A DNA stretch of 64,000 bases from Mobula hypostoma (Eukaryota), in assembly GCF_963921235.1 (NCBI RefSeq), contig NC_086097.1:24988001-25052000 (forward strand), read 5' to 3'. Position numbers and translations under genes: made by a program. The notes beneath the pieces were generated by a model. The model did no database searches. It was not told the origin of the DNA and was given only the letters and a program-made list of their open reading frames with translations. Positions 14,580 to 20,897 of this stretch are shown here, one piece after another; the first letter of the stretch is position 1, and each line of letters starts with the position of its first letter.

Positions 14580-16385
14580 TGTACGGAGTCTCTTTTTTTT
14601 GTATGTTAAATTTAAAATGGCTTCTTTGTTATGTTAAATACTGAGAAAGTCTCTAGCCAGACATTTGCTTGGGTTAGTACAGACAGCAGGGTGCTATTAG
14701 CCAATGGGTGTTCGGGTATCATTTTGTTTTCAGATGATAATGCTGTCTCATATGACTGGGGACAGGGTTTTTGGGGGGAGTCGGAGGAGAGACAGGGAGG
14801 TCGGCGGACGGGGTTTTTGACGGGGAGTCGGAGGAGAGACGGGGAGGACGGTGGACGGGTTTTTGGGGGGAGTTGGAGGATAGACGGGGAGGACGGTGGA
14901 CGGGGCTTTTGGCGGGGAGTCGGAGGAGAAACGGGGAAGACGGTGGATGGGGTTTTTGGGGGGGAGTCGGAGAAGAGACGGGGAGGACGGCGGACGGGGT
15001 TTTTGGGGGGGAGTCGGAGGAGAGACGAGGAGGACGGTGGACAGGGTTTTTGGTGGGGAGTCGGAGGAGAGACGGGGAGGACGGTGGATGGGGTTTCTGG
15101 GGGTGAGTTGGAGGAGAGACGGGGAGGACGGCGGACGGGGTTTTTGGGGGGGAGTCGGAGGAGAGACGAGGAGGACGGTGGACAGGGTTTTTGGCGGGGA
15201 GTCGGAGGAGAGACGGGGAGGACGGTGGATGGGGTTTTGGGGGGGAGTCGGAGGAGAGACGGGAAGGACGGCGGACGGGGTTTTTGGGGGGAGTTGGAGG
15301 AGAGACAGGGAGGATGGCAGACGGGGTTTTTGGGGGGGAGTCGGAGGAGAGACAGGGAGTCGGAGGAGAGACGAGGAGGACAGTGGACGGGGTTTTGGGG
15401 GGAGTCGGAGGAGAGACGGAGAGGACAGTGGATGGGGTTTTTGACGGGGAGTCGGAGGAGAGACGGAGAGGACAGTGGATGGGGTTTTTGACGGGGAGTC
15501 GGAGGAGAAACGGGGAGTCAGAGGAGAGACGAGGAGGACGGTGGACAGGGTTTTGGGGGGAGTTGGAGGAGAGACAGAGAGGACGGTGGATGGGGTTTTG
15601 GGGGGAGTCGGAGTGGAGACTGGGAGTCGGAGGAGAGACAAGGAGTCGGGGGAGAGACGGGGAGACGGAGGAGAGACGGGGAGTCGGAGGAGAGACGGGG
15701 AGACGGAGGAGAGACGGGGAGTCAGTGGAGAGACGGGGAGTCGGAGGAGAGACGGGGAGTCGGGGGAGAGACGGGGAGACGGAGGAGAGACGGGGAGTCG
15801 GAGGAGAGACGGGGAGACGGAGGAGAGACGGGGAGTCAGTGGAGAGACGGGGAGTCGGAGGAGAGACGGGGAGTCGGGGGAGAGACGGGGAGTCGGGGAA
15901 GAGACGGGGAGTCGGAGGAGAGATGGGGAGACGGAGGAGATACGGGGAGTCGGTGGAGAGAGACGGGGAGTCGGTGGAGAGAGACGGGGAGTCGGTGGAG
16001 GGACGGGGAGGACGGCGGATGTGCGGAAAGGCTCCGGTTGATCACTTCAGGTGGTCCCGAGCTGTGAGTTGACAGGATCCAGGTGGTCGTCAGGAATCGA
16101 TTGGGCTCCAACGGTTGCACACGAAGAACTTGGACTTTGATAAGTCTGGCGCTTTTTTTTCCCCATTACTTCCTTCTCTGTATCGCACTGATATTAATTT
16201 CATAGACTTAGTAATATCTATAAAGTGTACTTGGTAAAACGTACTGTGTGTGCTGGCTGATGATTGATGCTTGTGATTGATTCAGGTGGCAGTGGTACAG
16301 CAACCAACCCAGCAGGAAGCGTTCAGGCCGGTGCTGGGCGGGATTTCCCCAAGGCATATACGAGCCAATATAGCTGAGTGTTACA
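14580..16385. mobile_element. Solo LTR (about 1.8 kb) inserted in a CR1 fragment
   Basis: TGTAC...TTACA ends with 4-bp TSD TAAG (14576-14579, 16386-16389). Removing it restores the CR1 peptide ERVQIRFMRTLPG. Confidence 0.75.
14758..16015. repeat. G/purine-rich VNTR inside the solo LTR
   Basis: About 45-bp units (GGGGAGTCGGAGGAGAGACGGGGAGGACGGTGGACGGGGTTTTT) give way to about 19-bp units (GGGGAGTCGGAGGAGAGAC). Confidence 0.95.
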
Positions 16386-17973
16386 TAAGATTCATGAGAA
16401 CGCTGCCAGGATTTGATGGCCTGAGTTACACAGAGAGGTTGGGAGGACTAGGACTGTAATCACTGAAACATGGGGCACTGAGAGGTGACCTTACAGAGGT
16501 GTATAAAATTACAAGGGTACAAATAGGGTAAATGCAGTCAATCCCATGAGAAAAGAACTGTCAGGAACCAAGGGAACTAATTCTTGGCCTGCCCAACTTC
16601 TTCCTATAGCTCAGGCACCGAAGTCCTGACAACATTCCCATAAGCAATCGACATTTCAGACTGATGAAGGGTACTGGCCCTAAACCTCAACCACTTATTC
16701 ATTTCCATAGATGCTGCCTGACCAGCTGAGTTCCTCCAACATTATTGCTCTGGATTTCCGGTATCTGCAGAAAATTGTGTGTTGAACATCTCACAATTCT
16801 GTTTTGCACTCCTCTCAGCTTAATGACATCTTTCCTATATCAGGGTTACCAAAATAGAATACAGCACTTCAGGTGAGGCCTCAAAAACGTCTTGTACAAC
16901 TGTGACATCATATCCCAAATCCCACACTCAATATCCTGAAAGATGAAGGTGAGAGTGCCAAATACCTTCTCAACCCTGCAAACACCAATCGTCAAGGAAA
17001 ACCTTTTCTACAAATGTGCCCTTTTCATGTTGCAATTGTGCCCATCTCTATCACCTCCTCAGGCAGTTCTTCCCAAATACTCCCACTGTCTTTACAAAAG
17101 CCTTGCCTCATACCTGGGATAGTATACAGAGACTCTCATCAGCTCCAGTGTTTTGGAAAAGACCTGGAGAATTCTCCCCAGTTCTCTCCGGCTTCTGAAC
17201 CATAGAAAGCATTGTTTCTGGATGCATCAGGACTTGCTATGGCAACGGCTCTGCCCGTGACTACAGGAAACTGCAGAGAGTTGTGGATGCAGCTCAGCAC
17301 ATCATAGGAACCAGCCTCCTCCTTAAGGACCCTGTCTGTAGTTCCCACTGCATCAGTAAAGCAGCCAGCATAATCGAAGATCCCACCCACCCCGGGCGTC
17401 CTTTCTTCTCCCCTCTCCCATTAGGCGGAAGATACAAAAGCCTGAAAGTACATCCCACCAGGTTCAAAGACTCCCGCTGTTATCAGACTCTGGAATGGAC
17501 GTCTTGGACGATAAGATGGACTCTTAACTTCACAACCTACCTCACGATGATCTTGCCCTTCATCATTTGTCTGCACCGCACATTTTTTGGTCGGTTTTAC
17601 ACTTTATTCTGCATTGTTATCCTTTTACCTCTCAGCACTGTGTAATGATTTGATCTGTATGAACAGTGGCAAGACCGGTTTTTCATTGTATCTTGGTACA
17701 TGTGACAATAATCACCAATACTTAACCCTCAATTACCCAACCACACAAAAACAAAGACAACTTATCGGATTATTCCCCCTTGTTAGAGCCTGTAGGATTT
17801 TGCTGTGTGCGAATTGGCTAATGACAACACTTTTAAAAAATGGTTCACTAACGCAGAACCACACTGAGAGATCCTGGGGATATTGCTACATACATTGACT
17901 TTCATTACATAAGGATCATGTAATGTTGCGTCATGAATTGATAGAGAGCACGGCAGGTGAGTTACAAGATCTT

Positions 17974-17979
17974 TTTATT
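17974..17979 (-). promoter_or_regulatory. Candidate polyadenylation signal of the DIO2-like gene
   Basis: AATAAA on the minus strand about 135 nt downstream of the SECIS. Confidence 0.6.
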
Positions 17980-18111: not shown

Positions 18112-18182
18112 GGGCTTCTTTCTCTTCCAACAACTGACAGAGTGGTGAACTCATTCTTCAGTCGCCTTCATTCTGTGAGCCC
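18112..18182 (-). promoter_or_regulatory. SECIS element (form 2) in the 3'UTR of the DIO2-like gene
   Basis: Minus strand: GGGCT CACAGA ATGA A GGCGACTGA AG AA T GAGT TCACC ACTC TG TCAGTTGTT GGAA GAGAAAGA AGCCC. AUGA/GA quartet, 9-bp helix II (GGCGACUGA:UCAGUUGUU), unpaired AA 12 nt after AUGA, apical minihelix GAGU/ACUC, helix I GGGCU/AGCCC. Confidence 0.88.
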
Positions 18183-19586
18183 GGCTCCAGCCCACAGCCC
18201 CCTCCACTCATGCTTAAACCAAACAGAACGTGTGCAACTCAGTAACTTAAAAGAGAGGCTCACCTTAGACATGAACCTGCAGATGGGGGCAACGTACAGC
18301 AATAAAAGAGAAACTTAAGACACTGGTGAGGTGGGAACATTTTGCACCTCATGAAAAGAATACATTTACCACATTAAAAACTAAAATAGGGAATGCAATG
18401 ATGTTCAAAACCTGTGTCAGGTTTATTATATAATTAAGTCTATGTTCAGAACAAAAATATTGACATTCAGCTCAACTTGTTCTGGTATTTTCCACTTTCA
18501 AAGCAATCTTCTGTGAGATTATTTGGAAATAGTTTCGTCTGACTTGCATTAAATTTTATTGATGCATGGTTCAGTATCAGCTGAGGACAGTTATACAAAG
18601 GCTGATTATCTAACGCCCAGAGAAAGGGTCTCGACCCGAAACAGCAATTGTCCATTTCCCTTCACAGAATCTGCCTGATCCACTGAGCTCCTCCTGTATC
18701 TGTGTGTGTGACTTCCGTGACCCCATTCCTTCAACACCCACCCCCAGCCCAGGAGGGGAGCTGCCTTCTTGGACTGCCACAGTCTCTTTGGTGACGATGC
18801 TCTCATGTTGCTGATGGTGGGGAAGGAATGGAGTGAAGAGGGGTAGGGGGGAGCTCCAGGAATTAGAGACCCAGCAATGTATTTCCAAATCAGGATGGTG
18901 GGCAACTCTTAGGGAGAGGGGTGTCAGTGAAGCCTGGAGATGGAAAGCTGCAGAGGGCTGACTTCTCAGCCAGCTCCCTCACAGGCCTGTTATCATGCTG
19001 TGGCTCTAAATAAAACAGGCACAATGCTCCCCACAATCGAGGACATCTCCAAACGATGCAATGCCTCAAGAAAGCTGCATCCATCATTGAGGACGTCACC
19101 TCCCAGCACACGCCCTTGTCTCATTGCAACCGTCAGAGAGGAGGTGCAGGAGCCCCGACATTTGAGGAATGGCTTTCTCCCCTCTGCTATCATATTTTGA
19201 AACAGTCAAAATCACTTATTATCACTGATGTATCTTGAAATTGGCTGTTTTGCAGCAGAAGTATAGTGCAAGACATTTAAAAAGTTACAATGGAAATATA
19301 TTTTTAAAAAATCAATAATGCTTGCAAAAACAGAGCAAAAGAGTGAGATAGCATGCAAGAGCCCACGAACCCACTATTCTGCTCTCTTTTCACATTTCAT
19401 TTATATTTAATATTTTTTATTGTAACGTAGTTTTTTTTTAAGCGTTGCACTGTACTGCCACAAAGCAACAAATGTCATGACAGATGACAGTGATTTTTAT
19501 TCTGATTCAGATTCCTTCCTTTCCCCCCTCTGTACGGCCAGCTGCCCTTGGCATCACCACCCACCCCTCCACCCCTCCCTCCCTCC

Positions 19587-20339
19587 TTACTGCTTGTCCC
19601 CTCGGCGCCGCTCCAGCCAGCTCCTAACCCCAGCCAGGCTGTAGTAAAGGGGTCCCATCCCTCCGAGGTGTGCCACCCTGCCATCCTGCACAACGCAGAA
19701 GCGCTCAAAGGCCACGCCGTAGGCCTGGCTGGCCCCATCCTCCATGGAGTCAGCCACCACCCGGCACCAGGGGTCCAGCCGGAAATGGCGCAGGAGGAGG
19801 GAGGCGGCTGCGAGGCGCTCGGCCAGTGACCGGTGTCGCGGCAGCTGGAAGGGCGAGGAGGCAGCCCAGCCGTCGGAGGGGTGGGCCTCCCCAATGTAGA
19901 CCACCAGGAAGTCCGCCGCTCCGGCGTACTCCTCGGCCAGCCGGCAGAAGTCGGGCAGGGTGCCCACGAAGGGGGGTCACGTGGCCGAGCCGAAGTTGAC
20001 CACCAGTGGGCGGCCCGGACTGGCCAGGTCCAGCAGCCGGCAGCAGGACCCCCCGCCCTCCGTGCCCACCTGCACCACTCGCGAGTTGGGGGCTGCTCCG
20101 CCCTGCTTCACCTGCTTGCGTGCATCCAGCTGGAAACAGTGCCAAACCGAGCGCAGGCCCGGCAGGGTCAGCATCCTCTGGCCCCCGGCCCGGCCTGAAG
20201 ACAGGCCAAAGCCACTCAGCAGGCCCACTACCTGCTTAATGAGCTGCACTGAGTCATAGGCGGCCAGGAACAGGCAGTTGGAGAAGAACCCGGGCAGGAT
20301 CTGCAGGCCGATCAAGAGGTCCACACTTAACAAGCCCAT
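19587..20339 (-). CDS. dio2: Type II iodothyronine deiodinase-like selenoprotein, 250 aa, single coding exon, Sec121 encoded by TGA at 19979-19977
   Basis: ORFs 19977-20339 and 19587-19967 are in one frame, joined by TGA-CCC-CCC-TTC. N-terminal TM segment MGLLSVDLLIGLQILPGFFSNCLFLAAYDS; active centre RPLVVNFGSAT-U-PPF (Ala at -2 as in DIO2); DFLVVYIGEAHPSDGW; YGVAFER. Kozak ACCATGG, TAA stop, SECIS downstream. Orthologue versus paralogue is unresolved. Confidence 0.95.
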
Positions 20340-20444
20340 GGTGTTGCTCCACGGAGATTAGCCGGCTTGCCTCAAAGTTTTTGTGGAAGTTGCTCTCTCC
20401 CTCTCTCTTCCACTCTCTCCGGTCTCCTCCAGCTCTTCTCCACT

Positions 20445-20465
20445 CTACTCGTTCATCCACTCCAT
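20445..20465 (-). promoter_or_regulatory. Upstream ORF (MEWMNE*) in the putative 5'UTR
   Basis: ATG GAG TGG ATG AAC GAG TAG holds the only ATGs I found between the TATA box and the main start. Confidence 0.6.
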
Positions 20466-20807
20466 GAGTCAGGATAGCGAGACGAATCCACCTTCCTGAA
20501 TCCCCTCTGTCTCCTGAAGCCACGCTCTCCCAAAGCTGCTGTGTTGCTCGAATCCACTTTCTCCCTCCCTCTCGAAGGCGCTCTTTCTCGCTTGAATCTG
20601 CGCGCTCTCTTGATTCGACGCTCTCTCTGCCTCTGACCAATGGAGATGCAGGCAAGGGGAGGGAAGGAGGACTGAGGCAGGTCCTACCAACCCCCTGCAG
20701 AGGTTTAACCCGGCCAACTTCGGTCTCACGTGCACTCGCCGGCCCTCCCAGTCACAGCTCTGTTGTCACTCGCTGTGGCTCTGCACCGACAGCAGGTTGA
20801 GCCGACC

Positions 20808-20897
20808 TTATATACCCAGCTGCTGCCAATTACTGTGACTCCACAGAGCAGGGCTAATCTCTACTGAAGATTGTGACGTAGGTGGCTGGCTGAGTCA
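20808..20897 (-). promoter_or_regulatory. Proximal promoter: TATA box (20808-20814), CRE-like site (20874-20881), AP-1 site (20891-20897)
   Basis: Minus strand has TGACTCA ... CTACGTCA ... TATATAA. CRE-to-TATA spacing of about 60 nt matches the known DIO2 layout (CRE near -90). TSS inferred near 20783. Confidence 0.7.

Follow-up and report, generated by a model that had tools for sequence, protein, structure and literature searches.

Loss of the ubiquitin-acceptor lysines in the DIO2 of Mobula hypostoma and its relatives, with a shortened destruction loop in M. hypostoma

The genome of Mobula hypostoma carries an intact, single DIO2 gene in which both lysines that act as ubiquitin acceptors in mammalian D2 have been lost, together with most of the so-called destruction loop. 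In the textbook account, tissue T3 is buffered by a feedback in which substrate induces the ubiquitination of D2. On balance, we lean towards the reading that these signals were lost as substitution accelerated with a GC bias while constraint was relaxed, and that the enzyme escapes the canonical T4-triggered ubiquitin switch. The gene lies in a stretch of 64,000 nucleotides of contig NC_086097.1 (positions 24,988,001 to 25,052,000 of the forward strand; hereafter the window), in which the coordinates below are counted. The gene and all of its features given by position are on the minus strand, and related organisms are designated by letters.

Identity, transcript and copy number of the gene

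The DIO2 coding sequence occupies a single exon (19587..20339; 250 codons plus stop, GC 0.68, GC3 0.84) with a single in-frame TGA at codon 121 (19977..19979), which is predicted to encode selenocysteine within the motif FGSAT-U-PPF and aligns with the catalytic residue of mouse Dio2 (PDB 9H48). The product matches the Pfam T4_deiodinase family (PF00837) with an E value of 5e-81 over profile positions 1-236 of 237, and in the alignment to 9H48 the Sec motif, EAH, AFER and the distal Cys are retained. As in mouse and human DIO2, the Sec-Pro-Pro site is accompanied by alanine at the proximal-Cys position (Ala119) and by a three-residue insertion at the distal Cys (Cys192), both of which are DIO2 features (PMC11592359; this and the other PMC sources are cited from parts of their text). 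The predicted structure (pLDDT 87.4) has a thioredoxin-fold catalytic core, and its top PDB match is 9H48 (E 1e-21, 56% identity to mouse Dio2 in the structural match), with the DIO3 structure 4TR3 also among the first. Residues 6-41, including Lys35 (20217..20324), form a predicted helix to which homology assigns the role of N-terminal membrane anchor. This helix and the fold are shared with mammalian DIO2, as are a CRE-like site, a TATA element, an upstream ORF (uORF) and long UTRs; unlike mammalian DIO2, the gene has no intron, no D-loop insertion and no second in-frame TGA near the C-terminus.

A sequence scan of the promoter (20809..20881) recognized TATATA at 20814-20809 and a CRE-like half site at 20881-20874; a conserved CRE has been described in the Dio2 promoter (PMC3163027). 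A six-codon uORF lies in the 5′ UTR (20445..20465) and an AATAAA poly(A) signal at 17974..17979. Contigs of two organisms, from runs labelled as RNA by a guess (X5, X11, X18 and X20), start at 20775 and run without a joint across the coding sequence and 3′ UTR toward the poly(A) signal, one of them ceasing to match at 17958; it is the ends of these contigs that suggest DIO2 transcription. No part of the coding sequence is more than about 1.2 kb from the start site. A SECIS-like hairpin (ATGA, stem, AA, mini-stem, GA; 18125..18171) is found inside the transcript span about 1.4 kb past the stop, as compared with a 3′ UTR about 5 kb long in mammals (PMC3316567). It is the best of 48 scan candidates, with 10 paired stem positions; Rfam gave no SECIS match, whether the gathering score or an E value of up to 5 was applied, and the hairpin as a whole folds no better than shuffled sequences (65 of 200 as good, z -0.42). 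High-copy repeat fragments occupy 18617-18694, 19056-19154 and 19409-19514, between the stop and the hairpin, and a GC-skewed minisatellite of about 1.25 kb (14760-16010), built of 19-bp and 47-bp units, lies 2 kb past the poly(A) site.

This locus is a genuine DIO2 orthologue and the only one in the genome. Searches of the 3.48-Gb assembly with its own sequence (all 10 candidates scored) and with a bird-cluster DIO2 (all 17 scored) recovered it as the sole DIO2-like locus, besides a separate DIO3 on the same contig (C1, 43.8 Mb) and two DIO1-like loci on contig C50. The latter two are near-identical, about 46 kb apart (G000:C50:44778412-44780401 and 44824430-44826402; L003-L006), each with an in-frame TGA, and reflect either recent duplication in tandem or a duplicate introduced by the assembly. 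The one neighbouring gene examined, TFIIA, sits on the same strand 0.9 Mb upstream, as GTF2A1 does relative to DIO2 in human. In a tree of 29 C-terminal halves, from which DIO1 was excluded, the gene falls within the DIO2 clade (support 98/99) and the cartilaginous-fish DIO2 rows form one side of a 98/99 branch (Callorhinchus P0454, P0230, P0229/P0231, Chiloscyllium P0235 and Scyliorhinus P0238); it is sister to P0229 (99/99) on a long branch (in changes per column, 0.30 + 0.31). The genome's own DIO3 clusters with shark and chimaera DIO3 (99/98). The gene resembles DIO3 (4TR3 and the genome's own copy) in being intronless and in its short loop (12 residues in DIO3); DIO3, in contrast, is only 42% identical, belongs to a separate clade, possesses the proximal Cys and is an inner-ring enzyme.

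A retrocopy or extra paralogue is ruled out, as neither search recovered another DIO2 in the genome and the gene has its promoter and its SECIS-like hairpin. In organisms C and D, too, DNA contigs span the coding region without a joint, and their DIO2 is likewise intronless. Vertebrate Dio2 is described as multi-exon (PMC3316567, PMC8143656); the absence of introns may already be visible in published DIO trees that map intron positions in nine cartilaginous fish (PMC13134290, Figs S4/S5). As five of the seven coding differences to organism B, among the 17 of 23 differences listed, are synonymous and two are replacements, the gene is, by this comparison, still under constraint. Within codons 216-231, replacement changes are about as frequent as silent ones.

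Acceptor sites, destruction loop and their distribution

The two acceptor sites carry Arg221 (AGG, 19677..19679) and Met228 (ATG, 19656..19658), which HMMER aligned without gaps opposite both lysines of mouse Dio2 in 9H48. These lysines correspond to K237 and K244 in human numbering. The mouse ubiquitination sites are Lys234 and Lys241, and the numbering agrees with an offset of +3 between mouse Sec130 and human Sec133 (PMC11592359). The first-pass annotation had placed the loss of both lysines at 19656..19679, exactly where the alignment puts it, and had counted four lysines with the catalytic fold free of them except for the penultimate residue, as the translated ORF bears out: lysines occur only at 35, 75, 78 and 249, and residues 79-248 hold none. 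Lys75 and Lys78 (20106..20117) lie in the cytosolic linker, equivalent to mouse K73 and K76, and are possible alternative acceptors, as is the C-terminal Lys249 (19593..19595) by position the penultimate residue. Mouse K76 cross-links to both acceptor lysines, as does K261 (PMC11592359, Table 2), so that with K78 one lysine remains on the acceptor surface.

How exceptional this state is was surveyed in 537 proteins, of which 331 were distinct and gap-free over residues 214-230 (the 206 dropped being duplicates or not covering the segment); 199 scored as DIO2-like, and 196 remained once the query and two clearly non-vertebrate-DIO2 sequences (P0341, P0342) were removed, a set consisting mostly of teleosts, birds and mammals. 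Both lysines are present in 191 (K/K), R/K occurs in two (Aldrovandia and Gymnothorax), T/K in two (carp) and K/R in one (P0229), and none lacks both. Among bony vertebrates the K244 site is Lys in 193 of 193 and the K237 site in 189 of 193; the acceptor lysines are thus near-invariant in ordinary fish DIO2, and variation of the kind that would speak against an unusual loss was not seen in this alignment. Over aligned residues 134-246 the query has no Lys, against 5.1 ± 1.1 (minimum 1) in 188 bony-vertebrate DIO2s. In the two elopomorphs, Aldrovandia (P0013) and Gymnothorax (P0027), the K237 site was lost independently and the single C-half Lys is the one at the K244 site.

The shortened Dio2-insertion, or destruction loop, comprises residues 87-101 (20037..20081), that is 15 residues between the flanking motifs, and is the joint shortest among 166 distinct DIO2 loops, whose lengths run from 15 to 37 with a mode of 29. 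This is three residues more than in the genome's own DIO3 (12) and 14 fewer than in primate DIO2 (29), while two sharks have 21 and 25 and P0231 has 22. The near-deletion of this loop was missed in the first-pass annotation. A gar (P0057) has an equally short loop with both lysines kept, and loop loss and lysine loss therefore need not coincide. The loop is reported to be essential for ubiquitination (PMC11592359, PMC10164501, PMC3163027), and of two features of ubiquitin-switched D2, the acceptor lysines are absent and the destruction loop of 15-18 residues is nearly so. A further change lies in the small Dio2 insertion before distal Cys192 (19764..19775), where the alignment shows Asp189 in place of the proline beside the distal Cys, a residue (mouse Pro202, PMC11592359) that all 193 bony-vertebrate DIO2s share. 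The query thus differs from mammalian DIO2 in R/M at the acceptor sites, in a loop of 15 versus 26-29 residues and in the replacement of Pro202.

Two adjacent cysteines, Cys99 and Cys100 (20040-20045), are found in the shortened loop; only Cys100 is conserved in other DIO2s, and P0231 is without the extra Cys. Related peroxidases carry a resolving Cys in the equivalent insertion (PMC11592359), and by analogy the extra loop Cys could matter for re-reduction. The three-residue D-loop insertion of mammalian Dio2 is missing from the query (residues 158-166; 19850-19870) and from P0229, P0230 and the chimaera, and it may be a bony-vertebrate addition.

An assembly error at codons 221 and 228 is ruled out by a contig from a second sample of the organism that covers 19591-20775 with 0 differences. 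Loss confined to this species is likewise ruled out, as organisms E, G and H carry Arg221 and Arg228 (AGG at the second site) and organism J carries Arg221 and Met228 like the query (four runs over 19600-19730; the state of J comes from one 151-base contig at depth 3). The lysine loss is a clade trait, neither an error nor a private variant. Other cartilaginous-fish DIO2s are already Lys-poor (2-3 in the C-half) and rich in Gly, Ala, Arg and Pro; unlike the query, they retain at least one of the two lysines, and their loops are 21-25 residues long. The chimaera Callorhinchus (P0454) and the shark-like P0230 are K/K and P0229 is K/R, these being the three cartilaginous-fish C-terminal sequences in the comparison, and a search of cluster representatives added no closer relative. 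Arranged without a species tree, the states would form the order K/K (chimaera, P0230), K/R (P0229), R/R (E, G, H) and R/M (query, J). Gap counts imply 12 additional bases in organisms C and D, somewhere within 19478-20425. In the 118-residue fragment P0454 the only two lysines are the two acceptors, which suggests, from sequence comparison, that these were specifically retained against a lysine-poor background.

Base composition, constraint and selection

The first-pass annotation had allowed for GC-biased drift as a contributor, and this explains the pattern well: asparagine has been lost as completely as lysine. The GC3 of DIO2 (0.84) exceeds that of the genome's own DIO3 (0.59), of 99 TFIIA codons (0.44) and of two DIO1-like exons (0.35-0.39), and the window has a mean GC of 0.44. 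Residues 134-246 contain 0 Asn versus 5.9 ± 0.9 (minimum 3) and 1 Ile versus 3.6 in the 188 bony-vertebrate DIO2s, and the AT-rich residues (FYMINK) together make up 11.5% versus 24 ± 2%. Near-invariant sites of the C-half have changed at 20 of 66 in the query, 15 of 66 in P0229, 9 of 66 in the chimaera and 8 of 66 in P0230. Conserved AT-rich residues were changed in 11 of 20 cases as against 9 of 51 for the others (Fisher p 0.003), and leaving out Lys the AT-rich figure is 8 of 17 (p 0.024). When the count is confined to sites that P0230 and the chimaera conserve as well, 6 of 12 non-Lys AT-rich residues, 4 of 40 others and 2 of 2 lysines have changed; against this background the joint loss of both lysines would be expected about one time in four, and no lysine-specific selection is needed for it. 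Across 191 DIO2s, Lys count falls as Gly/Ala/Pro content rises (rho -0.51, with relatedness ignored). The double lysine loss thus looks mainly compositional rather than lysine-specific, as judged from these residue counts: measured by the family it goes beyond chance, but measured by the background of the gene itself it does not.

GC pressure alone would normally not suffice, since other GC-shifted DIO2s (the two elopomorphs with one C-half Lys and the chimaera with two) retain the Lys of the K244 site, and a share must also fall to relaxation or selection. The R228M step (AGG to ATG) opposes the GC bias, so that some release from constraint is needed here too. GC-biased gene conversion may be the process. 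The whole coding sequence, with its short distance from the start site, may be exposed to promoter-proximal GC bias, and weakened ligase recognition would have left the lysines free to drift.

The leading alternative is an adaptive dismantling of the degron, in which selection for a long-lived, substrate-insensitive T3 producer removed the loop, Pro202 and both lysines; we regard this as unlikely, though the best of the alternatives. Four features linked to D2 instability are altered within one lineage, the lysine that survives at the K244 site in all 193 bony-vertebrate sequences and in other GC-rich DIO2s has gone, R/R is common to three related organisms, and the differences to organism B are those of a constrained gene. 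Asn, Ile and other AT-rich residues without a ubiquitin role were lost at a similar rate, however, and the change extends to 20 of 66 near-invariant C-half sites. D2 may also operate near single-turnover in vivo (PMC11592359), so that stability need not, and by itself would not, raise T3 output. The strongest form of this proposal, a clade of rays in which a one-exon DIO2 under selection stepwise shed the loop, the proline and both lysines to become a natural vertebrate D2, the first of its kind, as stable as DIO3 and without post-translational T3 feedback, is equally improbable in our estimation. For scale, the half-life of human D2 is about 40 min and that of mammalian DIO3 about 12 h (PMC8566136).

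Predicted consequences for the ubiquitin switch and for catalysis

The first-pass annotation had claimed an enzyme that escapes substrate-induced degradation and serves as a stable T4-to-T3 converter. The first part is supported for the canonical switch by the near-invariant fish lysines, the sole DIO2 and the nearly deleted loop, and we consider it probable that the canonical WSB-1/TEB4 switch does not work as in mammals, neither acceptor being present and the recognition loop being largely gone. A long-lived, constitutively productive T3 enzyme would be a further step, as K75, K78, K249 and non-lysine acceptors remain. The predicted product would be an outer-ring deiodinase anchored in the ER, which substrate would no longer inactivate within minutes and whose control would lie mostly in transcription (CRE, TATA, uORF) and in general turnover in the ER.

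Human D2 mutants of the K237R/K244R and loop-deletion types have reportedly been engineered, and organisms E, G and H, being R/R, offer a natural counterpart of the double K-to-R mutant, which is reported to be stabilised despite retaining K76 and the C-terminal lysines. Unlike in these mutants, about 30% of near-invariant C-half sites are changed here, and their effects are therefore not directly transferable. It is somewhat less probable still than adaptive dismantling that the enzyme is short-lived after all, being degraded by MARCH6/TEB4 or ER quality control through K75, K78, K249 or Ser/Thr/Cys with little regulatory effect. Three cytosolic lysines are left for such a route, mouse K76 and K261 reach the acceptor lysines in cross-links, and MARCHF6 uses serines on squalene monooxygenase while five C-terminal lysines of SC4MOL are dispensable (PMC10176258); against it stand the near-absence of the recognition loop and the stability reported for the human double mutant.

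The changes might also concern catalysis and not turnover, a reading to which we give a low probability: cartilaginous-fish D2 would never have had the tetrapod ubiquitin switch, residue 228 would have been held as Lys or Arg for the substrate carboxylate, and Arg to Met would be the sole functional change, shifting affinity or ring selectivity. Mouse K241 lines the substrate crevice, the dipeptide there being Gly-Lys for Dio2, Gly-Arg for Dio3, with Ala, Ser or Pro in Dio1 (PMC11592359). K to R preserves charge and yields the Dio3 state, which is that of organisms E, G and H, shark and fish loops are without the mammalian loop motif, and in coral deiodinases the two sites are occupied by R and M. 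The K237 site is near-invariant too, however, with no substrate role proposed for it in the available part of PMC11592359, and the chimaera fragment, whose only lysines are the acceptors, suggests a lysine-specific constraint shared by both. Independently of that reading, Met228 may alter catalysis, because K244 lines the proposed substrate-carboxylate site; Met removes the charge and would weaken the proposed grip on the carboxylate. Decay toward a pseudogene, to which the long branch and changes at otherwise invariant sites (for example D150G, N201D, N202G and N204S) might point, is very improbable given the open frame, the catalytic motifs, the SECIS-like hairpin, the promoter and full-length RNA-guess contigs of a sole copy, with no indel within 19600-19730 in four related runs.

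No report of lysine or loop loss in fish DIO2 was found in the literature searched, the coverage of which leaves out most subscription journals, and the main text of a 2026 selenoproteome survey, in the part consulted, makes no mention of such a DIO2 feature. Similarly, the literature consulted, including part of PMC8143656, gave no evidence that the ubiquitin switch has been tested in any fish. The DIO2 of this clade is not a new kind of system; it is a real, clade-wide change largely explained by GC-driven divergence, with a predicted functional effect. The textbook D2 switch rests on mammalian work, and here is a lineage whose sole D2 is without the known signals. The natural series K/K, K/R, R/R and R/M, together with the passage from long to short loops, asks whether the switch is ancestral and whether it is dispensable in a vertebrate, and also whether the role of K244 lies in turnover or in binding the substrate. 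The lineage is, in addition, a clean candidate for GC-biased substitution erasing an otherwise invariant regulatory site.
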